59,986 nt of DNA from a candidate division Kazan bacterium. Its GTDB lineage: Bacteria > Patescibacteriota > Kazan-3B-28. The translations under genes were made by a program, and so were the position numbers. This document shows positions 3,544 to 56,514 of this stretch, piece by piece (position 1 is the first letter of the stretch; every line of letters begins with the position of its first letter). The notes beneath the pieces were generated by a model. It was not told where the DNA came from and made no database searches. It saw only the letters and a list, made by a program, of their open reading frames with translations. The stretch covers positions 1-59,986 of the forward strand of contig QMNG01000003.1 in the NCBI GenBank assembly GCA_003647645.1. Reading direction: 5' to 3'.

Positions 3544-4497
3544 ATGTATTTATTTCTTATCAATCCGGAAGCCGGAAATAAGCGATTTGTCCGTATTGAG
3601 AAAAAAATGAAACAACTGCTTGATCAGTACAAGATCAAGAGGCGGTTTGTGATAATTGATGATTTAGCCAACGTGCCTGCCATTGTCAAACATAATCTGC
3701 GGCCGATCGATAAGGGCATAGTCATAGTCGGAGGCAATGCCACAGTTAACGCTGTAATTAATGCCACTGTTACAGAGAACTTGCCGCTGGCCATCGTGCC
3801 AATGAGCAGAACCAACTACTTGGCTAAAAGCATCGGCATTAAATCCTGGGAACAGGCCATTAAGATGCTGGCCGAGCCAGAATTCCGGGCTGAGCGACTG
3901 GGTAAGATCGGCAAGTATTATTTTGTCAGACAGATAGCTATTACTTCTCGCCAAAATCTGTTGACCAAATATCTAACTAGAACCAATCCAATTCTAAGAT
4001 TTCTGGGCATAGCCGGACCGGGCCGGGCCGGGGACAACCAAGTTACAACCAAAATCCTGTTGGACGACGAATTAAGCGCTTCAAGCAAAACTCAAAAACT
4101 TGAGATCTCACTCTCCCCCAGCCAGCTGCCGGCCGGCTCCTCAGCTCCAAAAAGCTTGCTCCGCGCCAAAAGTGCCCAGGTTCCAGAGACAGATCCCAAA
4201 AACAGGCCCCGGTCTGATAAGGAAGTTTTTCAGCCCGGCGCTCCAGCTGAGGGAAGCAAGAAAACCACCGAGAAAAAATTGCAAATTCGCCTGTTTGTTC
4301 CAAGTCAAACAGGAACAAACATCAGTTTGCTGCATGGCAATTGCCTGACCATAGACAGCGATAAAAAGATGCCGGTAACCATGGGTAACGAAACCATCGC
4401 TTTTACGCCGGTTGAAATCAAAGGATTATCAAAACATGTCCGGCTAATGGTGCCGAAGGGTTCTAATGGTGAATTGACTGAACCCATAACCTCGTGA
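3544..4497 (+). CDS. Diacylglycerol/lipid kinase family protein with an internal low-complexity insertion
   Basis: INP.AGN, VGGNAT (GGDGT variant), LAIVP..RTNYLAKSIGI; ATG 3544 follows the previous stop. Confidence 0.75.
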   Translation: MYLFLINPEAGNKRFVRIEKKMKQLLDQYKIKRRFVIIDDLANVPAIVKHNLRPIDKGIVIVGGNATVNAVINATVTENLPLAIVPMSRTNYLAKSIGIKSWEQAIKMLAEPEFRAERLGKIGKYYFVRQIAITSRQNLLTKYLTRTNPILRFLGIAGPGRAGDNQVTTKILLDDELSASSKTQKLEISLSPSQLPAGSSAPKSLLRAKSAQVPETDPKNRPRSDKEVFQPGAPAEGSKKTTEKKLQIRLFVPSQTGTNISLLHGNCLTIDSDKKMPVTMGNETIAFTPVEIKGLSKHVRLMVPKGSNGELTEPITS

Positions 4498-4510
4498 TAA
4501 TTTAAGGATA

Positions 4511-5041
4511 GTGAAAAGACATCGACGTAAACCATATACACCACAAGTTCGAATTAATGAACGAATTCGAGTACCTGAGGTGCATTTAATTGATGGTCAA
4601 GGCAAGTCTCGTGGCAGCGTCCCAACTGCCACGGCTCTGGTTATGGCGCGTGAAGCGGGTTTGGATTTGGTTGAGGTATCGTCCAACGCCAATCCCCCAA
4701 TCGCTAAAATCATCGATGCCGGAAAATACAAATACGACCAAGCCAAAGCCAAATCACGAACCAAAAAACACCAAAAAGAGGCTAGCATTAAAGAGATTCG
4801 GCTGGGATTTAAAATTGACGACCACGATTTTGATGTTAAATTCAATCGTGCTAAAAAATTCTTATCACAGGGTGATAAAGTAAAGGCCGCTGTAATATTT
4901 AGGGGCCGTGAAATCACCCATATTGATTTGGGTAAGAAACTTTTGGACAAGTTTGTTGACAGACTGAGTGAAGTAGCTAGAATAGAACAAGCCCCAATTA
5001 GACAGGGCAGGAGCATTCACACCGTTTTGTCTCCCAAATAA
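4511..5041 (+). CDS. infC: Translation initiation factor IF-3
   Basis: RINERIR..EV.LID, GLDLVEVS.NANPP.AKI.D.GKYKY, GDKVK..V.FRGREI; GTG start. Confidence 0.97.
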   Translation: MKRHRRKPYTPQVRINERIRVPEVHLIDGQGKSRGSVPTATALVMAREAGLDLVEVSSNANPPIAKIIDAGKYKYDQAKAKSRTKKHQKEASIKEIRLGFKIDDHDFDVKFNRAKKFLSQGDKVKAAVIFRGREITHIDLGKKLLDKFVDRLSEVARIEQAPIRQGRSIHTVLSPK

Positions 5042-5166
5042 AACTTGTCCCGCCTGCTCAGCAATAGACTTGGCTTTTAATAAGAATGTCAGAAACTCGG
5101 GTAGCGGACAGCCAACGGGCATTTGCTAGTGGGCAGAAGCTATATGAATACAAATTTTTAATTGAA

Positions 5167-5361
5167 ATGCCTAAAATCAAGACACACAAAGGAGCCGCCA
5201 AGCGAATCCGAATAACCCGCAGCGGGAAGCTGAAACGCCGGCAGGCAATGCAGTCTCACAACCTGACTAAAAAAACTTCTGCCAGAAAGCGCCGACTGCG
5301 CCGGCCGGCTGATATCAATTCCGGAGACGAGAAGCGAATGAGGCGAATGCTGGCTCGTTAG
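5167..5361 (+). CDS. rpmI: 50S ribosomal protein L35
   Basis: [18 protein letters not shown]...H.L.KK; between infC and rplT; true start ATG 5167. Confidence 0.96.
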
Positions 5362-5464
5362 ACACAAGGATTAGGAGTCAAGAACTAAATATAAAATACA
5401 TCGAAAAACCACTTTAGCAACTTATCCCCGATTCATCACTCTTTATTTGTAATTCCAACTTAAT

Positions 5465-5809
5465 ATGCGCATTAAACGAGGAAAAACAACCAGGCGCCGC
5501 CATAAAAAAATATTGAAGCTGGCCAAGGGCTACCGAACTATCCGCAAATCCAATGTTAAGGTTGCTCGCACTGCCATAATGAAGGCACTATCTTATGCTT
5601 ACCGCGACCGCAGAAACAAAAAGCGAGTTTTCAGAAGCTTGTGGGTCAGCCGAATTAACGCAGGCCTAGAAAGTTTTGGCGTTAACTACAGTCGATTTAT
5701 CAAGGCCTTGAAAGACAAAAAAATTGATATTGATAGAAAGATCTTGGCTAAACTAGCCGCCGAACATCCAGAGATATTCAAACGCATAGTCGAGCACGTC
5801 GCAAAATAA
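5465..5809 (+). CDS. rplT: 50S ribosomal protein L20
   Basis: MRIKRG...RRRHKKILKLAKGY, AYRDRRNKKR.FR.LW..RINA. Confidence 0.97.
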   Translation: MRIKRGKTTRRRHKKILKLAKGYRTIRKSNVKVARTAIMKALSYAYRDRRNKKRVFRSLWVSRINAGLESFGVNYSRFIKALKDKKIDIDRKILAKLAAEHPEIFKRIVEHVAK

Positions 5810-5831
5810 AAAAGGCCCCGAGGGCCTTTTT
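5809..5831. terminator. Bidirectional intrinsic terminator
   Basis: AAAAAGGCCC-CGA-GGGCCTTTTT directly after the rplT stop. Confidence 0.85.
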
Positions 5832-6136
5832 GGCTACATCTATGCCAAGATCAAACCCTCGGGGTGCGTTCAACAGCCACTGGAACAGTGGGCGCAGCGC
5901 GGAATTATAAACCGCTTCATAGTTTACCTCCTGACTGTTGATAAGAAGAACATCAATGCTCTTCTATTTATAATGTACCAAACCAGTCAAGCATATTTCA
6001 GATAATGTACTTTTACACCTTAAACCTGCGCTAGAACCCATGGCCGTGAATTTTAATGCGGAGCGCGGTGCACAGCATAGTACATACCACTTCTTCAGGT
6101 GGATGTTGTCATTAAGGCTGTTTGTGCGTAATTTTT

Positions 6137-6529
6137 CTAATAAACACTAAAGGCCAGCCACAGGAAGAATACGCCCAATAACGCAGTAATAAGCCCGCAT
6201 ATCATGTTGTTGGTACCCGGTTTGTAAAACTTCTTGATCAAGTTTCTCATGCTTTCCGGAAAAAGAATGATGAAGGCGCCCTTAACCAGACCCAACCAAC
6301 CTACTAGTGGAATCACCCACATCCAATTATTAGCCAAAAGCCGGTACTCCACCCCCAAAATGATCACCGAAAAGGCAATGGTAATGAAAGCCAGGCTCAA
6401 CAGTGAACCAGTCGGCTTGGCAAACCCGTCCAAAATCGCATGGATGTCCTTGCTGTTGAACATCAATGGGATACCCAACAATATCATCCAAGCAGCCATA
6501 ATAAGAGCGACAATTGCGAAGAAACTCAT
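6137..6529 (-). CDS. Hypothetical 4-TM membrane protein
   Basis: 130-aa hydrophobic ORF with upstream GGGAGAAG; LVGWLGLVKG motif. Confidence 0.7.
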   Translation of the reverse strand: MSFFAIVALIMAAWMILLGIPLMFNSKDIHAILDGFAKPTGSLLSLAFITIAFSVIILGVEYRLLANNWMWVIPLVGWLGLVKGAFIILFPESMRNLIKKFYKPGTNNMICGLITALLGVFFLWLAFSVY

Positions 6530-6543
6530 ATAAACTTCTCCCT

Positions 6544-8649
6544 TTAATTAACTTGTATATAATTAGCACTAAGATCAAGGTCGGTTACCAGCCGCCCATT
6601 GAATAAGCGCTTGATTTTATCGCTGTCGTCCCCACCAGCCAGTTTGAGCGCGGGAGACAGTTTTAAAGTACTGGTTAATAGAGTAGTATCGGCACCGGGT
6701 TGCTTTTCAACCAACAACCGATAATTCCCATTAACTTTGTACGGCAGTTGGTACGACAAATTAATAGTATTTTCGGTCTTGGGTGGCGTGGTTACCCAAA
6801 AGGCAAAAACTGTTTTATCACCCTCTTCATAAATTTCAACCTGCGTACCCTCATCCTGTCCGCTGGACGTAATGAGCGTGCTGCCCAGAGGGACATAAAC
6901 ACGGACATAATCCCGGTTAACACCGTCGGGAGCCTCGCCATTGGAGAGATAATTGAATCCGGTGCCGGTATGGGTATAGGTTATACTCAAACTCTCCGTA
7001 GCAGCACCTGTTAAATTGATCATAATCGTATGTTTGATCTCTTCGACCACTCGCTGACTGCTTTTCATTCCGCCAAGATTTGATCTAACCACAGCCAAAA
7101 AATCTTCATTCTGATCAAGCAGCGGCATTGCTCCGGCAAAATTAAGATCTTCTATCACTTTTTGAAAACGGGGGTTGCGCGTGTATATCAAAATGTCTTT
7201 TTGGACCAGCCGCTGCATAATCGATGCCTGAATGTCCTGAAATTGCGCATGACTGGCCGTGAGCAGGCGCTCCATCAGTATGGGGGCTAATTTGTTGATA
7301 AGCTCTTTGGGATTTTCTCTCTTGTAGCGATTGGCTGCGATGTCTGCCTGAATGACTTCAACAACATTGCTGGCTGTCAGAGTAATATCCTCTTCCTCAA
7401 AATATATAGAGCCAAATATTCTTAACTGGTCCCTCATCACCTCCGGAGTGATGGCGATTATACCGTCCAAGCTGCCACCGGCAATACCGGAGTCCTCATA
7501 TAATTTTTGAAAAGTTTTGGCTGATGTTGGAAAATCAAAATACCAATTCGAATCCCTGGTCCCCCATCTGGCGTCGCCGGTTTCCCAGTCTGTGGCTATA
7601 GCCCTGAGAGGTGTTGGCATATCCAGCGACGGATTAATGATCTGGCCGTCTATTCTCTGGGTGGTATCCACGGACATTTCCTCAATCTGGCCTTTATATA
7701 TTTTTACAAATGCCACACTGCCCACAAAGCCACCGGTAGCCCGCAGCTCATTATTATTTTGGTTAAGAATTGCGTAGTAGCGCGGATTATTAAACCCCAG
7801 TATGTCGGGAAGTTCTCTGGCAATTGTTCCCAGCGTCATTACCAAATTCTGTAGGGCGGCAGTTTTTTCCTGTGCATTGACCACGGCAGCAGCATAAACA
7901 GGATCAATGACATCGGGATTAATTGAATTTAATAAACTGCTGGCCTTATTAACTTTGGCCAGTGCCCGGTCCAGATTTCCAATATTTTGATAAAGCAAAT
8001 TGGTAACTTGGGTAGCAAAGTCCTTAACCTGCAATTGACTGCTGACCGCTCCGTTGAAATATTGCATCAGCGGTTTCAATGTATCAATTAGTAAACTGCC
8101 GGCCTGAGCCAAACTCTGGCCGCTGTCGATAAGTTTTTGGCCGGTGACTATCTGTGAATTTTCGGCTGCCAGACCCGAAAGATAAAGATTAGTCTGCCCT
8201 AAGGACAGAATTTCCAGCTGTGCCCGGGAAAAAAGATTATCTGCAGCTATAAAGTTAGCCTTAGCCCCATTTATATCCTGTTCAATAGCAGCCGTTGCCG
8301 CCAACTCCAGTTTACTGATGCCCCGAGTGGCCAGCTCACTGATGTCGGCCTTCATGCTGTCGGCAAAACTAAATATCAACCCTCCTGCCATATACAAGAC
8401 AAAAGCTATTACACCGATCAAGATTATCTTCAGCCAAAACCAGATCGACAAGCTAATTGCTGGCCGGATAGCCGCTACCTCAAACTGCATATCCATAACC
8501 TGGCTCTGCTTGCCAAGTATAATGCCAGGAGCTGAAACAGATGCTGTTTTCTTTTTATCCGAACTTACCCTAATATCTATTGGTCTATGCCAAGTCACCC
8601 GCGGTGCGGTTTTGGGTTTGAAATAATAATATGTTTTCTTATTCCCCAT
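6544..8649 (-). CDS. DUF4012-domain membrane-anchored protein
   Basis: YAILNQNNNELRATGGFVGS, RDSNWYFDFPTSA, DGIIAITP, NRDYVRVYVPLGS motifs; likely start ATG 8649 overlapping the GT stop. Confidence 0.8.
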   Translation of the reverse strand: MGNKKTYYYFKPKTAPRVTWHRPIDIRVSSDKKKTASVSAPGIILGKQSQVMDMQFEVAAIRPAISLSIWFWLKIILIGVIAFVLYMAGGLIFSFADSMKADISELATRGISKLELAATAAIEQDINGAKANFIAADNLFSRAQLEILSLGQTNLYLSGLAAENSQIVTGQKLIDSGQSLAQAGSLLIDTLKPLMQYFNGAVSSQLQVKDFATQVTNLLYQNIGNLDRALAKVNKASSLLNSINPDVIDPVYAAAVVNAQEKTAALQNLVMTLGTIARELPDILGFNNPRYYAILNQNNNELRATGGFVGSVAFVKIYKGQIEEMSVDTTQRIDGQIINPSLDMPTPLRAIATDWETGDARWGTRDSNWYFDFPTSAKTFQKLYEDSGIAGGSLDGIIAITPEVMRDQLRIFGSIYFEEEDITLTASNVVEVIQADIAANRYKRENPKELINKLAPILMERLLTASHAQFQDIQASIMQRLVQKDILIYTRNPRFQKVIEDLNFAGAMPLLDQNEDFLAVVRSNLGGMKSSQRVVEEIKHTIMINLTGAATESLSITYTHTGTGFNYLSNGEAPDGVNRDYVRVYVPLGSTLITSSGQDEGTQVEIYEEGDKTVFAFWVTTPPKTENTINLSYQLPYKVNGNYRLLVEKQPGADTTLLTSTLKLSPALKLAGGDDSDKIKRLFNGRLVTDLDLSANYIQVN

Positions 8650-9841
8650 GTATTTCAACTGCCTCGTAAATGGCGTCCAGCGTACGCTTGGCAGACCTCT
8701 CCCAGGAAAAATAACGAGCTCGCTCATATCCTTTGGCTACTAAGGTTCGCCTTAATTCCCTATTTTCAAGGAGACTTTGAATGTGTCTCGCCAGGCCCTT
8801 GTAATCTTGAGGTTCCACCAGCAAAGCGGCATCACCGGCCACTTCAGGCAATGACGAAACATTACTGCAGATAACTGGACACCGACAGGCAAATGCTTCT
8901 AAAATCATCAGGCCGAATCCCTCGTAGTGAGACGGGAAAACCAGTGCTTCGGCATTATGCAGCATAGCAATTTTTTCCTGTTCGGTAACCCAGCCAGTAA
9001 AGATAACATCATCTTTTAGGCCAAGCTCATCAATGGCCTGGTAAAGATCATCTGCCAACCAGCTTTTGCCGCCTGCCAGAACCAACTTTATTGTATCAGA
9101 AGAGCTAAGCTTCAGTTCATATAATGCTCTGATGACCGTCGATAGATTTTTGCGCGGCTCGATGTTCCCCACGAAGAAAAGATACTTGTCCGGCAGATTG
9201 AATTTGGCTTTAACTGCCAGAAGAAGCTCGGGCGGCGGGACAGCAAAATATTCCTCGCCTACTCCCTCGGGAATGGTCCGAATTCGATCTGCTCTAGCGC
9301 GGGTGAAGCGTAAAATATCTTTTTTGGTAGCCTCGGAAACAGCGATCACAATGTCCGAAGTGCGAGCCTCATAAGGATAATTCATCTGCCACTGCCACAG
9401 ACGGGAACTATACGTAAAGTATTTAGGATAAATCAGAAAAATTAAATCATGGAAAGTGGTAACCTTGGCACACTTGCGACTTAAAGGCAGCATCTGAGGC
9501 GAGGGCATAAACATAACATCCAATCCGCCGCAGGCAAAATCGGCCTTGGGCCAATTGAGCGGTTTATAAAGGGCATGGATCAGCAGCGGAAAATTGATCC
9601 ATCTGGATTTCTTCACCTCAACATTAGAACTGCGCAAAAACGGATAATCTTTCACCAGCTGTTCAAATCTTTCATCAAGATCGCGATAAGAATTATAAAA
9701 CAACACATAAGTGTTAACTTTGTCTATTCTTAACAAATGCCTAAGAGTCTGAATGGTATATTGGCCAACGCCACTCAGCTTGCCAGTCAGAAGATTTCTA
9801 ATGTCAACACCTATGCGGATTGGTCTCATATTTTTCCTCAT
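8639..9841 (-). CDS. Glycosyltransferase family 4 (GT-B)
   Basis: FVGNIEPRKN, VFPSHYEGFGL..LEAFAC..PVI.SN.SSLPEVAGDAA. Confidence 0.92.
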   Translation of the reverse strand: MRKNMRPIRIGVDIRNLLTGKLSGVGQYTIQTLRHLLRIDKVNTYVLFYNSYRDLDERFEQLVKDYPFLRSSNVEVKKSRWINFPLLIHALYKPLNWPKADFACGGLDVMFMPSPQMLPLSRKCAKVTTFHDLIFLIYPKYFTYSSRLWQWQMNYPYEARTSDIVIAVSEATKKDILRFTRARADRIRTIPEGVGEEYFAVPPPELLLAVKAKFNLPDKYLFFVGNIEPRKNLSTVIRALYELKLSSSDTIKLVLAGGKSWLADDLYQAIDELGLKDDVIFTGWVTEQEKIAMLHNAEALVFPSHYEGFGLMILEAFACRCPVICSNVSSLPEVAGDAALLVEPQDYKGLARHIQSLLENRELRRTLVAKGYERARYFSWERSAKRTLDAIYEAVEIHGE

Positions 9842-9916
9842 TATTCCAAGATCAGTTCAAGACCTCGATAAAAATATTTTAGTTGTCATGATAGAACCTT
9901 AAGCCCAAAACAACGG

Positions 9917-11056: not shown

Positions 11057-11074
11057 AGGTTCTATTATACCAAG

Positions 11075-27819: not shown

Positions 27820-28317
27820 CTGTCATTGCGAGAAGTTCTGCTAAATAGCAGAACAACGAAGCAATCTATCTATGCAAAACCACAACTACTACATTTACAT
27901 TATGACCAATCACCGAAACAGCGTCTTATATACTGGCATCACTAACAATTTGATCAAACGCGTTTATGAGCATAAGCATAAGTTAGTTCCCGGTTTTACT
28001 GCTAAATATAATATTTGTAAATTAGCTTACTTCGAACAGACCGAAAATGTAGAATCGGCCATACTTCGTGAAAAACAGATTAAAGGTTGGCGACGAAGCA
28101 AAAAAGAAGTTTTAATTAATCTAATGAATCCCAAATGGCAAGATTTGTCCCAAGAGTGGAATATCCAAGAAACAGATTCCTCAACAGAACCCATGTCTCT
28201 CTGTCATTCTGAGCGGAGTGAAACGAAGCCGAAGAATCTTATCAAACAGATCCCTCGAGTACCTCGGGATGACAAAAGAGACACTCGGGATGACAAAAAA
28301 GACACTCGCAATGACAG
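27820..28317 (+). mobile_element. Putative GIY-YIG element bounded by perfect 13-bp inverted repeats
   Basis: CTGTCATTGCGAG (27820-27832) and CTCGCAATGACAG (28305-28317) enclose the nuclease core. Confidence 0.65.
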
Positions 28318-28330
28318 TGTAAATAAGTAG
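27872..28330 (+). CDS. GIY-YIG nuclease with a repeat-derived C-terminal tail
   Basis: YYIYIMTN..N.VLYTGITNNL.KRVYEHK, FT.KY...KL.YFE, AI.REKQIKGW.R.KK..LI...NP.W.DL; tail CHSERSE...PRDDKRDTRDD is translated repeat. Confidence 0.92.
   Translation: MQNHNYYIYIMTNHRNSVLYTGITNNLIKRVYEHKHKLVPGFTAKYNICKLAYFEQTENVESAILREKQIKGWRRSKKEVLINLMNPKWQDLSQEWNIQETDSSTEPMSLCHSERSETKPKNLIKQIPRVPRDDKRDTRDDKKDTRNDSVNK
28263..28317 (+). repeat. 21-bp tandem repeat (2.6 copies) of a REP end
   Basis: CTCGGGATGACAAAAGAGACA / CTCGGGATGACAAAAAAGACA / CTCGCAATGACAG. Confidence 0.9.
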
Positions 28331-29266
28331 TTGATGCGTAAAAATAAGAAACTAAAAATTGTAGCGGTGGTGGGACCGACGGCTTCTGGTAAGTCAACAC
28401 TGGCCGTTGAACTGGCAAAGCAGTTTAATGGAGTCATAATCTCTGCTGATTCCCGCCAAGTTTATCGCGGAATGGACATTGGTACCGCTAAAATCTCCAA
28501 AGATGAGATGGAGGGCATCTCCCACTATATGTTAGATGTGGCAGATCCGGATGATGACTTTAATGTAAGTCTATATCAAAAATCTGTAATGAATCTGCTT
28601 GAAGCCATAAAAAACAAAAATCGGAAAACCAACAGACCTGTCCTGCCCTTTATCGTCGGTGGCACTGGCCTATATGTCAGCGCCATCGTCGATGGTTTAA
28701 AATTTTCCGAGGTCAAACCGAATCTCAAATTGAGAGCCGATTTAAATAAAAAACCGCTGACCCAGTTGGCAATTAAGCTGAAAAAATTGGATCCCAACAC
28801 CACTACCGACTTAAAAAACAAGCGCCGAGTTATCCGAGCCATCGAGATATTAAAAGCCGGAAGCAAACCCTCCGGGCCAGAGGCCACTAAGGACCAGTGG
28901 CCGGCCAAAACTGAACCGAAGTTTGAAGTACTAAAGATCGGCGTTGGCAAAGACAGAAACATATCCAAAAAAAGAATTGAGAATCGGATATGGAATATGG
29001 ACATTCCGAAATTAATTAAAGAAACCAAAGCTCTAATTAAAAGGAAGTACGATTTTTCCAGCCCGGCCTTATCAGCTTTGGGCTACAACGATGTCAAAGA
29101 TTTTATCAACGATAAAATCACTGAACCGGAGCTAATTTATAGACTAATTAAGCTACACACCCAATACGCCAAGCGGCAGATGACCTGGTTTAAGAAGGAT
29201 AGATCTATTCACTGGGTAAAAGATGCCTCATCAGCCAAGAAACTAATCGCTAAGTGGTTGGAGTAG
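28331..29266 (+). CDS. miaA: tRNA dimethylallyltransferase
   Basis: VGPTASGKS, ISADSRQVYRGMDIGTAK, VGGTGLY, N.RRVIRAIE, YAKRQMTWF. Confidence 0.97.
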   Translation: MMRKNKKLKIVAVVGPTASGKSTLAVELAKQFNGVIISADSRQVYRGMDIGTAKISKDEMEGISHYMLDVADPDDDFNVSLYQKSVMNLLEAIKNKNRKTNRPVLPFIVGGTGLYVSAIVDGLKFSEVKPNLKLRADLNKKPLTQLAIKLKKLDPNTTTDLKNKRRVIRAIEILKAGSKPSGPEATKDQWPAKTEPKFEVLKIGVGKDRNISKKRIENRIWNMDIPKLIKETKALIKRKYDFSSPALSALGYNDVKDFINDKITEPELIYRLIKLHTQYAKRQMTWFKKDRSIHWVKDASSAKKLIAKWLE

Positions 29267-31291: not shown

Positions 31292-31367
31292 TGGTCGGGG
31301 CGACTGGACTCGAACCAGCGATCTCCGCGTCCCAAACGCGGCGCCTTAGCCACTAGGCCACGCCCCG
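31292..31367 (-). tRNA. tRNA-Pro(TGG)
   Basis: CGGGGCG/CGCCCCG acceptor, CCGCG-TTTGGGA-CGCGG, GGTTCGAGTCC, CCA. Confidence 0.95.
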
Positions 31368-31601
31368 GCTAGTTAATTCTTTTAAATATCTATATCCAGC
31401 TCCTTGTTTAAAATATTTTTCTCGACTCATCGCTTCGGCTCCAGTTGGATATATCTCTTTGTGTACAATCTGCCATGGACCTTTATTTTTTGTACTAGCG
31501 ACTTTATTACTGTTATGTAGTGCAATACGATAGCTTAAATTGTTGGTTTGACCAACATAAGTTTTACCACCTTCATTAATTATTACATATAGATAATACA
31601 T
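31353..31601 (-). CDS. Small GIY-YIG nuclease (UPF0213-like), stop codon inside tRNA-Pro
   Basis: MYYLYVI.N..G.TYVGQTNNL..R...HN, ST...GPW..V..E, AM.REKYFK.G.G. Confidence 0.88.
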   Translation of the reverse strand: MYYLYVIINEGGKTYVGQTNNLSYRIALHNSNKVASTKNKGPWQIVHKEIYPTGAEAMSREKYFKQGAGYRYLKELTSRGVA

Positions 31602-33021: not shown

Positions 33022-34787
33022 TGAACATTGCAGCTGACATCCAATTTGAGATTCAAAAAGTGGCCAAAAAACTCTGGCCGAAAATTAAATTGCCCGAAAT
33101 TGTTGTGGCTGAGCCGCCGTCTCCCCCATCTGGTGGAACAGAATTTGGGGACTATTCCTGCCCGGTGGCTTTGGGTATTGGTAGGCTCACAAAATCTGAT
33201 CCTCTCAAAATTGCTGAACAAATTAAAGAAAAGCTAGGAAAAATAGAACAAATTAAGGAAATCACCGTAACCAAGCCGGGATTCATTAATTTTATAATAA
33301 ATTATAAAGATCTGGCTGATGATTTGCTGGCCCGGCCGCAAAAAATTTCGGCTATGAGACCAAGAAATATTATTTTGGAACACACGGCGGTAAATCCCAA
33401 CAAGGCCGCCCACATCGGGCACTTAAGAAATGCCTGTCTGGGAGATTCGTATGCCAAAATCCTAAAACTGCTGGGACATAATGTTGAAATTCAAAACTAC
33501 ATTGATGATCTGGGTACACAAGTGGCCGACAGCGTGATGGCTATGCGTGAATTCGGCGCTCCTCCCAAAAACCAACCGGCCGATGAATGGTACTGGAACA
33601 TTTATTCAAAAATTCAAAAGAAGTATAAGACAGAGCCCGGTCTGCTTGAGAATCGCGATAATATATTACAGGAAATGGAAGAGGGCAAAAATGCTGATGC
33701 TAAAAAAATCGTCGATGAAATGGTGGCAGCCCATCTTGCCACCTTCAAGAAGTTTAATATCAAATATGATCTGCTGGTTTTTGAGCACGATATTATTAAT
33801 AATCATTTGTGGGACAAGGTTTTTGAGGATTTAAAAAAGCGCAAACTCATAGTTAAGCCCGCCACGGGTGAAATGAAAGGCGCTTGGATAGTTGAGTTCG
33901 GTGAAACCGAACGGGAGAACAAAATTCTAGTAAGAGCTAACGGAGTTCCGACATACACAGCCAAGGATTTGGCATACGAGTTGTGGAAGTTCGGTTTAAC
34001 TGAACCAATGAAAGGCTACAAAAACAAATTTAAAACCGTGGATATGACCATCACCGTAATTGATGAACGACAGAGTTATCCCCGAAGAGTGATTCAACAT
34101 ATTTTAAGCGAGTTGGGATATAAAAGGGAAGCTAAAAACTCTATTCACCTCGCCTATGGGGTAGTTAAGATTTCCAAGAAAGCCGCACAGGTGCTCAATC
34201 AGGACACCGGGCAAAAATCGACGTATTCAATGTCTGGCAGAAGCGGCATCGGGGTTATGGTCAACGCATTACTGGATACCGTCATCGCCAAACAAATTTG
34301 TGATCACAAAACTGAGGCAAATCGGGCCAAGGATATTGCCGTCGGCTCAATCCGCTACTATATGCTAAAAACCCGTCCTCTGCGTGAAATTATATTCGAC
34401 TTTGATGAAGCTCTAAAAACTGATGGCAATACCGGTGTCTACTTGCAATATGCCTATGTTCGAGCCAATCATATTTTAATGAAAGTTGATTCGAAAAAAT
34501 CTGCCAAAATTCCCAAAAACTTGAGCGTTCACGAAAAACAATTAATCAAGACGTTAGCTGAGTTGGAAAGCCATATCCTCAAAGCTGCTAATGAATACGA
34601 CCCGTCGCTGATTTGTGATTATGCTCATGGTTTGGCTTCAACCTTCGCCCGGTTCTATGAGACCAGCCCAGTGCTACAGTCGGAGGAACCGCTTAAATCC
34701 TTCCGACTCAATTTAGTTAAAAAATACAAAGAAACCTTAGAACAAGTGTTGAATCTCATTGGTATTCCAGTACTACCCAGTATCTAA
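33021..34787 (+). CDS. argS: Arginine--tRNA ligase
   Basis: FGDYS, PGFINF, EHTAVNPNK..HIGHLRNA.LGD, MSGR.G, GNTG.YLQYAYVR. Confidence 0.96.
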   Translation: MNIAADIQFEIQKVAKKLWPKIKLPEIVVAEPPSPPSGGTEFGDYSCPVALGIGRLTKSDPLKIAEQIKEKLGKIEQIKEITVTKPGFINFIINYKDLADDLLARPQKISAMRPRNIILEHTAVNPNKAAHIGHLRNACLGDSYAKILKLLGHNVEIQNYIDDLGTQVADSVMAMREFGAPPKNQPADEWYWNIYSKIQKKYKTEPGLLENRDNILQEMEEGKNADAKKIVDEMVAAHLATFKKFNIKYDLLVFEHDIINNHLWDKVFEDLKKRKLIVKPATGEMKGAWIVEFGETERENKILVRANGVPTYTAKDLAYELWKFGLTEPMKGYKNKFKTVDMTITVIDERQSYPRRVIQHILSELGYKREAKNSIHLAYGVVKISKKAAQVLNQDTGQKSTYSMSGRSGIGVMVNALLDTVIAKQICDHKTEANRAKDIAVGSIRYYMLKTRPLREIIFDFDEALKTDGNTGVYLQYAYVRANHILMKVDSKKSAKIPKNLSVHEKQLIKTLAELESHILKAANEYDPSLICDYAHGLASTFARFYETSPVLQSEEPLKSFRLNLVKKYKETLEQVLNLIGIPVLPSI

Positions 34788-46566: not shown

Positions 46567-46606
<40 letters not shown>

Positions 46607-47644: not shown

Positions 47645-47731
47645 TTGTCATTCTGAATTCATTTCAGAATCTAGCTTCCTGCCCAGAGGGCTTTAGCCCG
47701 GAGGGATCCTGAAACTAGTTCAGGATGACGG
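47645..47731. repeat. TGTCAT...ATGACG REP-like doublet containing GCCCGGAGGG
   Basis: TTGTCATTCTGAATTCATTTCAGAATC...GGATCCTGAAACTAGTTCAGGATGACGG. Confidence 0.8.
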
Positions 47732-47774
47732 AAGAGAGAGCTTCCAGACTCCAAATTCTAAATTCCAACCCATT

Positions 47775-48647: not shown

Positions 48648-48786
48648 AAATTCATTTTACATCAAAAAACAGCCCCATTTTTTAACGGCCCACCCACGGG
48701 CTGTTAGACTTTCATAAAATTTTATGAATAAAAGCTTCCTCTGTTATATTATTTTACAGATTCCAAATACCAGTATGTCGTTTGAC

Positions 48787-50118: not shown

Positions 50119-50198
50119 CTTATAACTTTGTGGAGGTGTAGGTTAGGGTGTAGACTTCTTGGCCATTTTTGGTGATGGTTTCGGTGCCGTGGAATTTT

Positions 50199-50648
50199 TT
50201 ATTGTCCCCAATCGATTAGCTCGGTGAATCTTAAATAAAAACCAAACGGGTCTTCCATTCTAAAGTCGCGCCACTTCATTTCTTTATCTTCCTTATCCAT
50301 TACTGGCTGAATGATGTGGTCTTTGAGAGTGTCAGCAACTTTGTTGTAGAACTCGTCAGCGCTAGGAACGGGTATGGTGATGGAGGTGGCGTATCCCCGC
50401 TTGGTGTCTTTGGGGTAGTTTTTGAAGTATGACTGGTTGTAGACTAAATCATTACCGCCATAGAAATGGAGAAGGGTTTCACCCATCTCGGTGGTCAGCT
50501 TCATCACTAAGTAGCCGGGTTTATCAGCAGTGGGAACGTGCTCTAAAATCACCTTGAAACCAAGGATGGAATAAAATTTCTTGGCCACATCAAAATCTGG
50601 AATATGTAATTCGATTATCAGATTGTTGCGAATTGGTTGTTTGTTCAT
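50199..50648 (-). CDS. VOC / glyoxalase-bleomycin resistance family protein
   Basis: ELH.PDF..A.KFY..LGF, W..RDFR..DPFG..LRF.E. Confidence 0.85.
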   Translation of the reverse strand: MNKQPIRNNLIIELHIPDFDVAKKFYSILGFKVILEHVPTADKPGYLVMKLTTEMGETLLHFYGGNDLVYNQSYFKNYPKDTKRGYATSITIPVPSADEFYNKVADTLKDHIIQPVMDKEDKEMKWRDFRMEDPFGFYLRFTELIDWGQ

Positions 50649-50796
50649 AACTTAATAGGTCTTGGTTCTGGCGCTAATTAAAAATTCCGCTACTTCCTCC
50701 ATATATTTTGAGCATAACATAGGCTATTTTTCTTGACCAGAAGCTACTTTTTGTTATATTAGAGCTATCTCGAACATTAAGATTGGAGGTGATATT

Positions 50797-51174
50797 GTGC
50801 CGATACCGTGGACGGTATATATTTCTGCAGGCAACAAGACAATGCACTACATCGACAATGCGTGTTGTGCAATTATCCGTCCCACAAGTGACAATGGGAT
50901 AGAATTGCTGCTTTATGAAGTATTAGGTAGAAACGAAGCTAACCTAATACTCCAAGGCAGAGACAAGGAGGAGGTGTTTCGCACCTGCTTCTACTACACG
51001 GCTGGCAGCTCAGAGGAGCAAGAAAAAGCACTTCAAGATGCTAAAAGTCGGGCAGAGGAGCTGCTGATGGAGCGAAGCGAGGAAGCCCGCCAACTCCTCA
51101 AGAAACACCGGCCGCTCGTTCCTGCTATTTTCAGTGGAGAACGTACCTCTAAAACCTTCAAGGAGGTAACCTAG
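50797..51174 (+). CDS. Hypothetical protein (125 aa)
   Basis: GGAGG RBS before GTG; TTGACC-16-TATATT upstream. Confidence 0.7.
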   Translation: MPIPWTVYISAGNKTMHYIDNACCAIIRPTSDNGIELLLYEVLGRNEANLILQGRDKEEVFRTCFYYTAGSSEEQEKALQDAKSRAEELLMERSEEARQLLKKHRPLVPAIFSGERTSKTFKEVT

Positions 51175-51407
51175 CAGAGAAAATTAAGAGCCACCCCTCT
51201 CCTTTGGTACGCAAAATCGGTGAAGCCCCAACCAACGAGGCCATCAGCCGTTACATGGGTGATTAGGCCAGAATCTTGCAACTGAACATACAGGCATTTC
51301 TTTTAAGAAGTGCCTGTTTTCATTTAATTCTAATCGGCCCATCCACGGGCCGATTGATTTCTCGCTTCTATTGCGGATTTTCTTTACTTCTTTGATATAC
51401 TGTAAGT

Positions 51408-51947
51408 GTGAATAAGAGGATACTTCTAGCCGTGGATCCAGCCTCCGGCCCGAAGGACCCCAAAGCCCGGAGGGAAGACCTAAAAAAGCTTCGCCAGAAA
51501 AGCGAGGTAGTTAAAGTTGTCGATAAAAATATCAAGCGTCTGGTTTCGGATATGTTCGATATTATGCATGCAGACAACGGAATCGGGCTGTCGGCTCCTC
51601 AGATCGGCGTGTCCAAGCGGGTAATTATCGGAGAATATGAAAGCACTAAGACTCCTGTTCCTCGCATGGTATTAATTAATCCCGAAATCACTTGGACATC
51701 AAAAAAAGAAACTGTGGACGAGGAGGGCTGTTTATCGTTTCCCAACTTGTACGGAATGGTCAAGAGACCTGAACGCATTCGCTATACTGCTATGAACGAA
51801 AACGGCAAAAAGATTGAGGGCAAAGCCACTGGTTTACAGGCTCGGGTTATCCAGCACGAAATAGACCATCTGGACGGGATTTTATTTATAGATAGGCTTG
51901 AGGGAAACCTATATACCTATGAGAAACAGGCAGAGAATGGAGAGTAA
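51408..51947 (+). CDS. def: Peptide deformylase with an N-terminal palindromic insertion
   Basis: GIGLSAPQIG, EGCLS.P, QHEIDHLDGILF; directly upstream of fmt. Confidence 0.96.
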   Translation: MNKRILLAVDPASGPKDPKARREDLKKLRQKSEVVKVVDKNIKRLVSDMFDIMHADNGIGLSAPQIGVSKRVIIGEYESTKTPVPRMVLINPEITWTSKKETVDEEGCLSFPNLYGMVKRPERIRYTAMNENGKKIEGKATGLQARVIQHEIDHLDGILFIDRLEGNLYTYEKQAENGE

Positions 51948-51988
51948 AGAATAGAGCATAGAGAGCAGAGAGAAGGAAAAACACAACT

Positions 51989-52068
51989 CTGTCATTGCGA
52001 GGAGGTCAAAGACCGACGAAGCAATCTCTTCTAAACACTCAGATTGCCACGCTACGCTCGCAATGACA
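51989..52068. repeat. CTGTCATTGCGAG...CTCGCAATGACA REP-like doublet (gene-less version of the GIY-YIG element)
   Basis: Same termini and internal ACGAAGCAATCT as 27820-28317, with only a short spacer. Confidence 0.88.
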
Positions 52069-52124
52069 AAAAACAAAAACTGTAATTTATTATTCCAGAT
52101 TCTATATTCCAAATTCCAATTTTT

Positions 52125-53063
52125 ATGAATCCCCAAAGCTACAATGTGATATTCATGGGCACGCCGGAATTTGCTGTGCCATCACTGAAAGCATTGATCG
52201 CCAGTCCAGAATTCAATGTAAGAATGGTAATTACCCAGCCGGATAAACCAGCCGGGCGAGGCAACGAAGTTCAAAAAAGTCCGGTTACCGAAGTGGCTTT
52301 GACGGAAGGTCTGCCGATTTTGCAGCCAGAAACAGTTAAGCACAACCCCGAGTTGGTTAGAGCAATCAAAAGCATTGCGCCGGATGTGATTGTGGTGGCG
52401 GCCTATGGCAAGATTTTGCCTCAAGAGATCTTAGACATTCCGAAATTTGGAATAGTTAATGTCCATGCTTCCCTACTGCCCAAATACCGCGGAGCTTCAC
52501 CAATACCAGCGACAATAATCAACGGTGATGCCGAAACTGGCGTAACAATCATGAAAATGGAATTAGAAATGGATGCAGGCCCGATTATTGGCACCAGCAA
52601 GAAAATAACCATAGACCAAGATGACACCAGCGCGACATTAAGTAAAAAATTGGCTGAAATCGGCGCCGAATCATTGATGGAGCTGCTGCCAAAATACCTG
52701 AGCGGCGAAATTACACCGCAAAAACAAAACGAAGCCGAGGCCAGTTTTGTTAAACTCCTTGAAAAAGAAGACGGTAAAATTGACTGGAACGAATCTGAGG
52801 AGATTATCGCCCGCAAGGTACGAGCGTATAATCCGTGGCCGTCAGCTTTCACTATTTACAAAGGCGAACCACTCAAAATTTTAGAAACGGAATATCATCC
52901 TGAGATACAGAATGAATCAGGCAAAGTTAGCACTCAGAACAGCGACTTATATATAGGAAAATTGAAGATACTCAAACTGCAACCGGCCGGCAAAAAACCA
53001 ATGTCCGGGAGAGACTTTTTAGCTGGACATGCAGATATTGCAGATATAGATCTTAGAAGTTAA
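52125..53063 (+). CDS. fmt: Methionyl-tRNA formyltransferase
   Basis: FMGTPEFAVPSL, V.TQPDKP.GRG, VVAAYGKILP, NVHASLLPKYRGASPI, MDAG.I, VRAYNPWP.A. Confidence 0.97.
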   Translation: MNPQSYNVIFMGTPEFAVPSLKALIASPEFNVRMVITQPDKPAGRGNEVQKSPVTEVALTEGLPILQPETVKHNPELVRAIKSIAPDVIVVAAYGKILPQEILDIPKFGIVNVHASLLPKYRGASPIPATIINGDAETGVTIMKMELEMDAGPIIGTSKKITIDQDDTSATLSKKLAEIGAESLMELLPKYLSGEITPQKQNEAEASFVKLLEKEDGKIDWNESEEIIARKVRAYNPWPSAFTIYKGEPLKILETEYHPEIQNESGKVSTQNSDLYIGKLKILKLQPAGKKPMSGRDFLAGHADIADIDLRS

Positions 53064-53227
53064 TTTTTGATAAGACGAATATGCTACAATTAGGGTAGTT
53101 TATTTTTGACAAAGGGATTTATATCGTTGCTTGATCAGAAGCCGTCTTGTGCTATTCGACACAGTTTGGTCGGGCTGTTGTCCACTTTTGTCGGGCTTCT
53201 GGCAAGACATAACGTAGAGGAGTCGCC

Positions 53228-53371
53228 ATGGCATATCTCTATCTACTAATTGGTATTGTTGACCTAATTTTGGTCTTCATTAACCCTGAGTGGGGCTACA
53301 CTCTGGCCATCATTCTCGGTATCATCTATGTGATATTCGGGCTGTATGAGGTCTTCATGCCTCGCAAATAG
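53228..53371 (+). CDS. Small 2-TM membrane protein (47 aa; missing from the ORF track)
   Basis: AGAGGAG RBS, ATG 53228, MAYLYLLIGIVDLILVFINPEWGYTLAIILGIIYVIFGLYEVFMPRK, followed by a terminator. Confidence 0.6.
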   Translation: MAYLYLLIGIVDLILVFINPEWGYTLAIILGIIYVIFGLYEVFMPRK

Positions 53372-53403
53372 AAATAGGATTTATCCTGTTATCATAAGTC
53401 CGC

Positions 53404-53433
53404 AAAAACCCGTTCTTTTCTGAACGGGTTTTT
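53404..53433. terminator. Bidirectional intrinsic terminator
   Basis: AAAAACCCGTTC-TTTTCT-GAACGGGTTTTT between convergent genes. Confidence 0.8.
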
Positions 53434-53445
53434 GGTTATCCTTAT

Positions 53446-53727
53446 TTATTGCCCAAATCCAGCCGATTCCAAAAATTCGTTGATTCTCGTAAAGAAATCA
53501 CCGACTACCGGGATGACTTCCATTTGTTGCAGGATGGCTCCGATAATTGCTACTAAGATTGCTAGTCCCACTGTGGCGCCGAGAGCAATAAATATACCGC
53601 TCACAAACGAGCGGGCAATTAGATAACCCCAATTACCATAGGCCTTTTCAATGGCCAAACTAAACGAACGAAGTGCAACATCATTAATCATCCCCTTTTT
53701 GTGTTGTTTCTTCCTCATCCCAATCAT
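53446..53727 (-). CDS. Small membrane protein (DUF5665-like)
   Basis: ..LI.RSF.SGIF.ALGATVG.AIL.......L..M..IPVVGDF. Confidence 0.65.
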   Translation of the reverse strand: MIGMRKKQHKKGMINDVALRSFSLAIEKAYGNWGYLIARSFVSGIFIALGATVGLAILVAIIGAILQQMEVIPVVGDFFTRINEFLESAGFGQ

Positions 53728-53737
53728 TATACCAGCT

Positions 53738-54223
53738 CTATGCGACGCTCACATTACACTCAATGTCATACAGGGCGTAGGAAACATTATTTACCCAAGG
53801 ATGGAGAGGTTCAACATATTTCCAAGTTCGTACCATTCCCCAAGGGGTAGGCTCGCCGTCTTGGGGGTCATACTTATACAGAAGCTCAGAAGTATATTTG
53901 ATCGACTCAGACCAAGAATTAAAATTCCTGGTTTTGCCAAAGTTATCACTGCCTTTGCGATAATCTTTAATTCCCCAAGCGTTAAAATTACCTGCCATGT
54001 GCTTGCCATAGCTGCTCTCGGCAGCGGAAATGGCTATAATTGTCCGCCAGTTATCGTATTTTGTCACTTCGACAGCTGGTATAGGGCTGCCCTTATCTGA
54101 TAAAAAGGTCTGCAATTGAGAAGTCAGCGGATCGAGATCGTATCCGACTGGCCCCCCTACAGCAATGTAGGCGAGAAGGGCAAATATTGCCCCAACTAAG
54201 CTGTTCATTTTTTCTATCCCCAA
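53738..54223 (-). CDS. Exported protein, possible lysozyme-like (glucosaminidase/SLT) fold
   Basis: N-terminal hydrophobic helix; IIAISAAESSYG...FNAWGI...F.SW.E.I. Confidence 0.5.
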   Translation of the reverse strand: MGIEKMNSLVGAIFALLAYIAVGGPVGYDLDPLTSQLQTFLSDKGSPIPAVEVTKYDNWRTIIAISAAESSYGKHMAGNFNAWGIKDYRKGSDNFGKTRNFNSWSESIKYTSELLYKYDPQDGEPTPWGMVRTWKYVEPLHPWVNNVSYALYDIECNVSVA

Positions 54224-54465
54224 TAAAAAACTGCCTTTTGGCAGCTACAAAACAGGATAGCTTAAAACTAGCTCTGTGTCAATAGAACTAGTATTTAGTA
54301 TTTGGAATCTAGAATCTAGTATGGGGTAGTACTTTTTCCGTTTGGTACAGCCAACCGTAGCTTGGAAAGCGAAGTTTGGTGGAGCTAGACGGAACTTTCC
54401 CAAGAGAAGCAGAGCATTCAATTTGATTCCATTCGTCCCTCCTGTTAGAATGAAGCGTTTATAAT

Positions 54466-54936
54466 TTGAACCTTAACACAAGGAGGAGATTTCAAATGGA
54501 AGGCAAACCTTCTTATCCCTGCTCGGATTATTCCCCTGAAAGCTGGGATGATGTAACTATCTACGCCATCACGGGATGGATGAGCCAGTCATGGGATGGA
54601 AGAGACGATTTTGCGGTAGCCTTTGGTGGCTACTTCAAGTTGCTCGAGAAAGAAGGAGCACTCAAGGGACAGATCGTGGATCAGTGGGGAACAGCCATAA
54701 TTAATGGGACTTTGAAGGGAGACACTCTCCTTTTCGACAAGCACTACGACTTCCTCGCAACCCCCATTACTTACCCTCTTATTATTTCTTTCAATCTCAC
54801 CAAGGAAGCCGACGGCCATTGGCGTGGGACCTACCAGATGTCTGGCGGCTTACATGGGAATGGAACCGTTGAATGCATTGTGGAAGCCGCCATACCCAAC
54901 GCATTCGGGGTTTCTTCGGAAGCCCACCTCAGTTAA
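54466..54936 (+). CDS. Hypothetical protein
   Basis: AGGAGGAG RBS before ATG ~54496 (MEGKPSY...); no family recognised. Confidence 0.65.
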   Translation: MNLNTRRRFQMEGKPSYPCSDYSPESWDDVTIYAITGWMSQSWDGRDDFAVAFGGYFKLLEKEGALKGQIVDQWGTAIINGTLKGDTLLFDKHYDFLATPITYPLIISFNLTKEADGHWRGTYQMSGGLHGNGTVECIVEAAIPNAFGVSSEAHLS

Positions 54937-54998
54937 AGGACTCAGAGCTGAGCATCTCTAAAAACTGCTCTTTTTTGTTAGATTGATTAAATCTGCTC

Positions 54999-55074
54999 TG
55001 GTGGACGGTACCGGAATCGAACCGGTGGCCTCTACGATGCGAACGTAGCGCTCTACCAACTGAGCTAACCGCCC
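54999..55074 (-). tRNA. tRNA-Ala(CGC)
   Basis: GGGCGGT/ACCGTCC with G3:U70, CTACG-TTCGCAT-CGTAG, CCA. Confidence 0.95.
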
Positions 55075-55194
55075 TCATGTGGTCGTTCTACAAGCTATAG
55101 CAGGCTAGGTAGGCAATTGAGATCCTTCGACTTCGCTCAGGATGACAAGATTATTAATTGGATATTGGATATTGAATATTACGGCGCAACCGTT

Positions 55195-56514
55195 TTATAT
55201 TTCTTCGAACTCAAACTCTTTTGAGCCGATGCGGACTTTATCCCCCTCTTTGGCGCCGGCCTTTTTTAATGCTCCCAGCACCCCCATCCGCTTCAATACT
55301 TTATAAAATCGGGCCAAAGCTTGGGGATTATTGACATCGGTCTTTGTGGCCAATCTCTCCTGACGCGGACCCTTAACCTCAAAATATCCTCTTTTTTTCA
55401 CAACTTCAAACCGAACATACGGCAGATCCCGCAGAGTGAAGATTTTAAAGATTTCATCAGCTTTGGTTTTATGTTCAACCTTAGGTAGAGTGCTGGCAAT
55501 ATTATTAACCAGATTCTGCACATTTTTGTGGGTGGCAGCCGAGATATAAAACGCCGGAAAGTTCCGAAACTTGATCTTTTTTATCTTTTTAAGCTGTTCC
55601 TCGGTAGCCACATCAATTTTATTGAATACAACCAACTGCGGCTTTTGTCCCAGCATCTTATCATATTTTTTCATCTCGCTATTAATCTTCTGGAAATCCT
55701 TTTTGGGATTTTCGCTAGTGGCATCCAGTATATGAACCAACAGCTTAGTCCGCTCGACATGCTTTAAAAACCGAATGCCCAAACCCTTGCCTTGTGAAGC
55801 TCCCTCAATCAACCCGGGAACATCGGCGACAATAAAACTGGTGTCTTTGAGCCGAACTATGCCCAAATTCGGAATTAAAGTTGTGAAATGATAATCCGCA
55901 ATTTTAGGACGGGCATTAGAGATAACAGACAACAAAGTTGATTTACCAACAGAGGGCATGCCAATTAGCCCAACATCAGCCACAATTTTAAGCTTGAGCA
56001 CTACCTCGCGCTCTTCTCCCGGTTCACCCAGCTCGGCAAAGCGCGGAGTTTGGAAAGAGGCCCTGGCAAACCGAGCATTGCCCATTCCCCCTTCTCCGCC
56101 CTTGGCCGCCAAAAATTCATCGCCCGATTCATCTAGATCAGCTATTAAAAACTCCTTTTTCTCGCCCTTAACTTTTTCCCTCCGAGCCGGAGATCCTCCA
56201 GCCCGGCGGGAGACCCTTTCAAAGATTTGCGTACCCACCGGAACCTTTATTATTAAATCCTTACCTGCCTTGCCGGCAGATTTCTTCTTTTTGCCCCCCT
56301 CTCCATTTTGGGCTTTGTAGGTCTTTTTTCTTGTCAGATCAGCCAAAGTGTTGAGATTATGGTCGGCTCTGATAATGATATCGCCGCCATCGCCGCCATC
56401 GCCGCCGTCAGGACCGCCGCGAGCCACAAATTTTTCACGGCGAAAAGACACGGCACCGTCCCCGCCTCTGCCGGCGATAATTTCAAAGCTAACTTCGTCT
56501 GCAAAACTACTCAC
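55195..56514 (-). CDS. obg: GTPase Obg/CgtA
   Basis: F.DEV...I.AG.GGDG.VSFRREKFV..GGPDGGDGG.GG, ADVGLIG.PSVGKSTLLS, PKIADY.FTTL.PNLG, DVPGLIEGA..GKGLG..FLKHVERT, C-terminal DUF1967-like region. Confidence 0.97.
   Translation of the reverse strand: MSSFADEVSFEIIAGRGGDGAVSFRREKFVARGGPDGGDGGDGGDIIIRADHNLNTLADLTRKKTYKAQNGEGGKKKKSAGKAGKDLIIKVPVGTQIFERVSRRAGGSPARREKVKGEKKEFLIADLDESGDEFLAAKGGEGGMGNARFARASFQTPRFAELGEPGEEREVVLKLKIVADVGLIGMPSVGKSTLLSVISNARPKIADYHFTTLIPNLGIVRLKDTSFIVADVPGLIEGASQGKGLGIRFLKHVERTKLLVHILDATSENPKKDFQKINSEMKKYDKMLGQKPQLVVFNKIDVATEEQLKKIKKIKFRNFPAFYISAATHKNVQNLVNNIASTLPKVEHKTKADEIFKIFTLRDLPYVRFEVVKKRGYFEVKGPRQERLATKTDVNNPQALARFYKVLKRMGVLGALKKAGAKEGDKVRIGSKEFEFEEI

Follow-up and report, generated by a model that had tools for sequence, protein, structure and literature searches.

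A GC-rich palindromic doublet of ~33 nt dispersed through the genome of a candidate division Kazan bacterium, with copies in frame in housekeeping genes

Introduction

Repetitive extragenic palindromic (REP) sequences are short (20-40 nt), lie mostly outside genes, reach hundreds per genome and occur alongside a gene for a REP-associated tyrosine transposase (RAYT), which REPs usually flank. REPs, bacterial interspersed mosaic elements (BIMEs) and REP doublets forming hairpins (REPINs) were reportedly described together with their RAYT transposases by Bertels and Rainey in 2011, and intragenic REPs are said to have been treated by Di Nocera et al. in 2013. Small dispersed repeats of cyanobacteria were reportedly described by Elhai et al. 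in 2008 and double-hairpin elements of Allomyces mitochondrial DNA by Paquin et al. in 2000; the GC clusters of yeast mitochondria are likewise mobile and reside in extremely AT-rich genomes. The Rickettsia palindromic elements (RPEs), of which RPE-1 to RPE-10 go back to Ogata et al. (2000 and 2002), are ~100-150 bp long, fall into ten families and reach tens to hundreds of copies in Alphaproteobacteria, as far as the summary given in PMC10969869 extends. In R. bellii, 526 RPE copies have been counted, 53 of them in protein genes and 1 in the gene for transfer-messenger RNA (tmRNA) (PMC1458961). Here we analyze a GC-rich palindromic repeat of ~33 nt in a candidate division Kazan bacterium (Patescibacteriota; assembly GCA_003647645.1), starting from contig QMNG01000003.1, which at its full length of 59,986 nt is called the window in the following. 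An earlier note on this DNA had proposed that def, obg, miaA, a lipid kinase gene and, as a weaker case, argS carry in-frame insertions of a coding-palindrome family comparable to the Rickettsia elements. This proposal is supported for Def, Obg, MiaA and an intergenic copy, and it extends to TopA, PheT and tmRNA. In a limited literature search, no published in-frame palindromic elements were found for bacteria of the candidate phyla radiation (CPR).

Results

The window is contig C3 of a bin of 1.14 Mb in 138 contigs, whose core contigs C1-C7 comprise ~503 kb with a G+C content of 0.435-0.443. The genome contains ~10 copies of the repeat, all located on these core contigs (Table 1). Six copies lie in frame in protein genes, namely def, obg, miaA, topA and, twice, pheT, one lies in the tmRNA gene and three are intergenic. 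Each in-frame copy is missing from the orthologues, which were drawn for alignment from 25-40 related genomes; the genomes of relatives from the same family and order measure 0.4-0.8 Mb. The nearest relative found is the 455-kb JGI contig Ga0366824_1000005, which in Obg shares 83% protein and ~79% DNA identity with the window organism. In the codon alignment of def with this relative (L129) the gap is exactly 33 nt, and the additional 11 residues are missing from all eight Def orthologues of the family. In obg, 39 nt stand in place of one Ile codon, which corresponds to 12 additional residues and a net gap of 36 nt in the nearest relative; the insert is missing from 23 orthologues, among them those of L129 and L130 with 83% and 80% amino-acid identity, respectively. 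The insert in miaA (net +30 nt, 10 residues) is missing from 19 orthologues and appears as a 30-nt gap in the alignment with the nearest relative (L177). Moreover, the miaA copy is present in an independent assembly (ENA, L178) with 100% identity across 6.9 kb, hence the repeat is not an assembly artefact. The sequences quoted in the earlier note were all found where it had placed them, and the insert status that it had given for its five genes was borne out by real indels in all five. The condition under which the note would have been refuted did not arise, as orthologues lack the segments rather than sharing them.

The copy in the tmRNA gene and one intergenic copy are likewise additional DNA. 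When the tmRNA gene was aligned end to end with the Rfam model, 42 nt were found where the model has 8 in the hairpin loop of pseudoknot 1 (PK1). This stretch of ~35 nt is missing from the tmRNA in 17 relatives. The gene measures 404 nt here, compared with 352-385 nt in relatives. The tmRNA gene was considered as the origin of the family and rejected, because its copy is itself an insertion. For the intergenic copy at 47674-47704 an empty site exists in the nearest relative, where CAGAATCTA is directly joined to GATCCTGAA (in longer form TTCAGAATCTA joined to GATCCTGAA) with identical flanks. Since at most 1 nt is common to the end of the element and the flank, there is no target-site duplication. 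In the 42 kb of the nearest relative that were examined, no unit of the repeat was found at up to 2 mismatches. The ambiguity at the insert junctions is at most 1-2 nt throughout. Furthermore, the net insert sizes of 30, 33, 33, 33, 33 and 36 nt in protein genes and of 31 nt between genes fit an element of ~32-34 nt that is filtered for reading frame in genes. The copies are found in either orientation and in several frames, and their occurrence in an RNA gene, in spacers and in protein genes indicates a feature of the DNA and not of the proteins. Collectively, the comparison with sister lineages and their empty sites shows what appear to be copies added at unrelated sites, in either orientation and without target-site duplication.

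The places at which the protein genes accommodate these copies seem to be permissive. In AlphaFold2 (AF2) models built with 45-46 homologues, the Obg insert falls in a loop between two strands (residues 104-116) with a predicted local distance difference test (pLDDT) score <50, and the MiaA insert falls in residues 181-190, the sole low-confidence block of that model (mean pLDDT 53, 92.6 otherwise). Different inserts were found at or near the same loops in other genomes (Obg and MiaA of G024, Def of G002 and G016, PheT and ArgS of several), hence these loops are permissive. Relatives also carry longer GC-rich palindromic in-frame inserts (~70-90 nt) of other sequence at the same or nearby loops, and several of them have inserts of 30-70 residues in ArgS and short inserts in PheT (L200, L204, L205, L207). 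The longer and differing inserts in relatives therefore point to more than one family of such elements in the order.

The element is ~33 nt long (copies ~31-36 nt) and consists of a tandem pair of the 15-nt near-palindrome CCTCYGG-N-CCRGAGG. Nine copies aligned over ~34 nt give the doublet consensus CCTCCGGSCCAGAGG-SY-TCTCCGGSCCGGYGG, with ~75% GC in a genome of roughly 0.5 Mb and 44% GC. The good unit sites lie next to each other in pairs, the period being 15-17 nt. When the unit is extended to the 17-mer p-CCTCCGG-s-CCGGAGG-x, the flanking bases co-vary with the centre among 53 units, the (p,s,x) form being (C,G,C) in 15 of them, (G,C,G) in 10 and (A,T,A) in 3; the paired units are tandem and not inverted, and usually share one form. 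The (C,G,C) and (G,C,G) forms are mutually reverse-complementary save for small arm variants, which do not flip with the centre. These mirror forms are reminiscent of the flip and flop states that arise from hairpin copying, by which no mechanism is claimed.

The repeat is strongly over-represented. The 10-mer GCCCGGAGGG, which the earlier note had reported as exact in def, in miaA on the reverse strand and in an intergenic repeat, indeed occurs exactly at these three sites of the window, i.e. 51465(+), 28868(-) and 47696(+). With up to 1 mismatch it gives 11 matches in the window versus 2.55 expected, a number that none of 100 shuffles reached. Genome-wide, the scan for this 10-mer suggested in the note found 8 exact copies compared with ~0.6 expected from base composition, and family members beyond the window were found. 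The unit pattern itself occurs at 8 genomic sites with up to 1 mismatch, compared with 0.2 in block shuffles and 0 for the reversed-pattern control, and, when up to 2 mismatches are allowed, at 26 sites versus 6.2 in block shuffles. In leave-one-out nhmmer searches of the 503 kb, six of nine copies were regained at E<=0.02. The miaA copy is one of these six (E=0.007): its unit 1 matches the pattern exactly, and it has the 17-mer CCCTCCGGGCCAGAGGC in common with the PheT copy at C1:86150.

The same unit recurs in other genomes of the order. Among 26 genomes of the order, with 0 to 9 unit copies each, 49 matches with up to 1 mismatch were obtained versus 1 for the reversed-pattern control; the corresponding values for 35 other genomes of the phylum are 7 and 5, i.e. 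background level outside the order. The 20 sites examined in G015, G016, G020 and G025 mostly contain the same doublet at sites that are not orthologous, several of them in long open reading frames (ORFs) and some in spacers of tRNA/rRNA operons, and the def gene of G016 has a copy at another position than the def gene of the window organism. A copy on C5 of G015, CCTCTGGCCCAGAGGGCACTCCGGCCCGGCGGG, is identical in 32 of 33 positions to the topA copy of the window organism. The two organisms belong to different families, and their orthologous proteins are ~50-60% identical. A near-identical element across genera and families with proteins of such low identity, found at differing sites, argues that new copies are still being made or were made recently. 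The turnover of occupied sites at constant element sequence likewise points to a sequence-constrained source and to continuing or recent spread.

Two small hairpin repeats of other sequence directly flank the intergenic copy at 47674 (Table 1), and the arm TTCAGGATGAC of the right one is present 10 times in the genome. In G025, two copies of the GC-rich doublet (L158, L165) are nested within the loop of a hairpin of this ATCCTGAA-actag-TTCAGGATGAC type.

Table 1. Location of the repeat copies and of other features discussed in the text. Positions refer to the window unless another contig (C) of the same bin is named; amino-acid readings assume translation of the inserts.
Feature	Position	Strand	Description
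def copy	51441..51473	+	33-nt insert GCCTCCGGCCCGAAGGACCCCAAAGCCCGGAGG, read as ASGPKDPKARR
obg copy	56179..56217	+ (gene on -)	units CCTCCGAGCCGGAGA and CCTCCAGCCCGGCGG, read as RVSRRAGGSPARR
miaA copy	28869..28900	+	CCTCCGGGCCAGAGG-CC-ACTAAGGACCAGTGG, read as SGPEATKDQW
Intergenic copy	47674..47704	+	31 nt, GCTTCCTGCCCAGAGGGCTTTAGCCCGGAGG, flanked by two other small hairpin repeats
Hairpin repeat left of 47674 copy	47645-47673		TCATTCTGAA-ttcat-TTCAGAAT
Hairpin repeat right of 47674 copy	47705-47735		ATCCTGAA-actag-TTCAGGATGAC
topA copy	C1:536		+11 aa, ASGPEGSPARR; missing from 24 orthologues
pheT copies	C1:86151 and C1:85929 (degenerate)		+11 aa each; missing from 24 orthologues
Other intergenic copies	C4:29477 and C7:16273		
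tmRNA gene copy	C6:18102-18135		gene C6:17799-18202 (L233/L235); in PK1 hairpin loop
Longer palindromic inserts in relatives			L013 (G002 def), L053 (G024 obg), L074 (G024 miaA)
DAGK-family lipid kinase insert	4126..4266	+	141 nt, 47 aa, in frame
argS indel	33126..33140	+	15 nt, 5 aa
Recurring topA fragment	C1:1-228 and C5:1-228		
GIY-YIG genes	27872-28330, 31374-31601; C6:17390-17644, C6:35862-36071, C2:114658-114915, C2:125569-125826		

Two of the five indels named in the earlier note are real but do not carry the motif of the family. The insert in the DAGK-family lipid kinase is missing from 22 orthologues; its best score with the position weight matrix (PWM) of the unit is 5.5 (p=0.16), compared with 10-27 in true units, nhmmer gave no match to the family, blastn revealed no further copy in the genome, and it folds no better than shuffles (z=+1.3). 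It was therefore rejected as a family member. A shorter, diverged version is present in a relative with 71% identity (P0175/L260) and none in a relative with 67% identity, hence this linker insert is older than the others and fast-evolving. The version in L260 has four weak unit-like matches (best p ~0.01), so that the kinase insert could possibly represent decayed copies of the family. In the same gene, ~90 nt upstream of the 47-residue insert, a GC-rich run GCCGGACCGGGCCGGGCCGGGG at 4000-4044 encodes a variable linker (IAGPGRAGD) of the same length as in the orthologues. The argS indel is missing from the nearest relative (15-nt gap) and from most orthologues, and two relatives have other short inserts at the same spot. 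With a best unit PWM score of 0.1 and no nhmmer match it was rejected as a family member as well.

At least six small genes for GIY-YIG nuclease-like proteins are present on the core contigs, several of them adjoining tRNA or tmRNA genes (tRNA-Pro at 31292-31367 in the window, tmRNA on C6). Two copies of the repeat, those in miaA and in the tmRNA gene, are situated within ~550 nt of such a gene, for which a rough estimate gives p ~0.02. A cassette composed of the element and a GIY-YIG nuclease was rejected, because in the nearest relative the GIY-YIG gene upstream of miaA is retained while the element is missing. Hence, the proximity is only chance or a lead.

Regarding the composition of the bin, the small contigs outside the core have G+C contents spread from 0.32 to 0.60 around the 0.44 of the core, and many of them are probably foreign. 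A second tmRNA gene at C16:2103-2494 likewise points to foreign small contigs. Contig C8 (GC 0.335) carries a CRISPR array whose 40 repeats GTCACCATACTACATAGTTCTCTTTAAAC recur every ~66 nt from ~C8:18539 onwards; a scan for over-represented 9-mers mainly recovered this array on its foreign-looking contig. The first 76 residues of the topA fragment with which C1 begins are found again, with 96% identity and on the opposite strand, where C5 begins. This suggests an overlap of contig ends or, at a break in the assembly, a strain variant.

Discussion

Our data are best explained by a very short, dispersed, GC-rich and non-coding insertional repeat with RPE- or REP-like behaviour, which is tolerated in frame in disordered loops, and we regard this explanation as probable. 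We are highly confident that the repeat forms a dispersed insertional family tolerated in frame; we have little confidence in any one mechanism of mobilisation. Insertion of the element would be indifferent to the coding status of the target, and in essential genes only those copies would survive that comprise a multiple of three nucleotides and lie in permissive disordered loops. A genic element may then be read through as ~11 amino acids, among which Ser, Gly, Pro, Arg, Ala and Glu are abundant, if translation is assumed. New copies would still be arising, or would have arisen until recently, from a sequence-constrained source, and the likeliest source might be a trans-acting protein or process that is common to the order and recognises the palindromic unit.

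Several observations weigh against this explanation. No mobilising enzyme was found: matches to the Y1/RAYT family (PF01797) occur only on contigs C81 (GC 0.35) and C88 (GC 0.53), both probably foreign to a core of 0.44 GC, and 21 of the 26 genomes of the order gave no match, among them G015, G016 and G020, which are rich in the element with 4-6 unit matches each. There is no target-site duplication at the junctions in Def, Obg and MiaA or at the empty site at 47674, and no consistent target sequence. The copy number is low (~10). Mobility is inferred from a comparison between species with ~79% identity at the nucleotide level; formally, the relatives might have lost the segments by precise deletion instead, and translation of the inserts is assumed. 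Moreover, three copies (def, obg and 47674) have diverged further than the rest and are not significant by profile alone, with leave-one-out E-values of 1.5-9.5 (E=2 for def, whose unit 1 has 1 mismatch to the pattern; E=9.5 for obg, whose two adjoining units have 2 mismatches each). They were accepted because each has 1-2 unit matches, which is very improbable in ~35 nt, and because these matches coincide with independently set insertion boundaries. Finally, the three true copies in def, obg and miaA fold barely better than shuffles (z -0.7 to -2.0). These weak z-scores together with the doublet of small palindromes rule out a single long hairpin per insert, as the earlier note had pictured it, and the signal of the family is common sequence rather than thermodynamic stability.

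An alternative is spread without a transposase, either by template switching during replication or repair or by recombination with incoming DNA in naturally competent cells, in which case the conservation of the sequence would mirror structural needs of an intermediate. The core contigs without transposase match, the junction ambiguity of at most 1-2 nt in the absence of target-site duplication and the mirror forms (C,G,C) and (G,C,G), which are possible via a hairpin intermediate, would all agree with it. However, no inverted copy of the host flank exists at the clean empty site at 47674, and an identity of 32/33 across families is difficult to maintain unless a sequence-specific reader or horizontal transfer is involved. 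A simple flip-flop moreover fails to predict doublet units of the same form and arm variants that do not flip with the centre. We consider spread of this kind rather unlikely.

It is very improbable that the doublets are REP pairs of the REPIN type moved by a RAYT, i.e. an IS200/IS605-like Y1 transposase. The arrangement of 15-nt imperfect palindrome units in doublets is like that of REPINs, the lack of target-site duplication is like that of Y1 single-strand transposition, and PF01797 matches do exist in the bin. However, these two matches sit on small contigs with a GC content unlike that of the core, the 21 genomes of the order without a match include element-rich ones, and there are ~10 copies rather than hundreds, seven of them inside genes. 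Sites under selection for a host function, be it binding of a dimeric protein, an RNA signal or peptides such as SGPE and ARR as selected loop additions, are hardly credible in spite of the 15-nt dyad symmetry typical for dimer binding sites, the strong conservation across the order and one copy that has the end GGAGG and lies directly upstream of an ORF of 950 aa. The copies occupy non-orthologous sites in different genomes, none of the four in the window is present in the nearest relative, the inserts lie in low-confidence loops, and no single peptide or regulatory logic fits copies that are found in both orientations and several frames, in spacers as well as in an RNA gene.

A further idea may be considered, which we regard as possible albeit doubtful: the doublet could be the product of an undescribed mode of moving DNA that is common to the whole order, perhaps to CPR bacteria generally, in which a 17-nt hairpin unit is copied via an intermediate consisting of a folded single strand. 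Flip and flop would then be represented by the (C,G,C) and (G,C,G) forms, the unit would be laid down as a tandem pair without target duplication, and the agent might be a small conserved nuclease or the replication machinery alone. If true, essential proteins would thereby be supplied steadily with new surface loops despite extreme genome reduction.

The repeat is of interest beyond this organism. Genomes of CPR bacteria (Patescibacteria) are among the smallest and most streamlined, yet selfish-looking DNA is tolerated here in def, obg, miaA, topA, pheT and ssrA. The exact empty sites, the 33-nt anatomy and the range of one order make it a tractable case for the movement of mini-repeats without an enzyme of their own, which is the same question as for RPEs, REP-like elements and mitochondrial GC clusters. 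The repeat also matters for annotation and for the modelling of proteins, as loops of 10-12 residues that are specific to a lineage of CPR bacteria may represent repeat DNA rather than adaptations. Furthermore, the inserts could mark strain and species history by their presence or absence.

In comparison with the known systems, the Kazan element shares with RPEs that non-coding palindromic repeats occur in a small genome, in frame in unrelated housekeeping genes with read-through (here assumed), but also between genes and in tmRNA, where R. bellii has one and the copy described here occupies the PK1 loop; for neither is a mobilising enzyme known. It is set apart from them by size (~33 nt, a quarter of theirs), consensus and host, a member of the Patescibacteria with ~10 copies, so that the resemblance would be one of behaviour only. 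With REPs and REPINs it shares the short GC-rich imperfect palindrome, the doublets and the lack of target-site duplication; it differs from them in its mostly intragenic copies (7 of 10), their number of ~10 and the core contigs without Y1 match. The ends of the element, CCTCCGG...CCGGYGG, are inverted repeats, but so is each unit. From MITEs, the miniature transposable elements with inverted repeats, it differs by the lack of target-site duplication, and nhmmer, in place of a systematic search for insertion sequences, which was not made, found neither a longer gene-carrying copy nor, as a possible origin in this genome, a master gene or master RNA of greater length, but short copies only. 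The small repeats of cyanobacteria, the mitochondrial GC clusters and the Allomyces elements resemble it in their palindromic or double-hairpin units of ~20-50 nt without coding capacity, in new sites that include protein and RNA genes and in nesting, here seen in G025; they differ in lineage and sequence, and the GC contrast in mitochondria is stronger than the ~75% versus 44% found here. By this analogy, the Kazan element appears to work most like the small repeats of cyanobacteria and the GC clusters and double-hairpin elements of fungal mitochondria.

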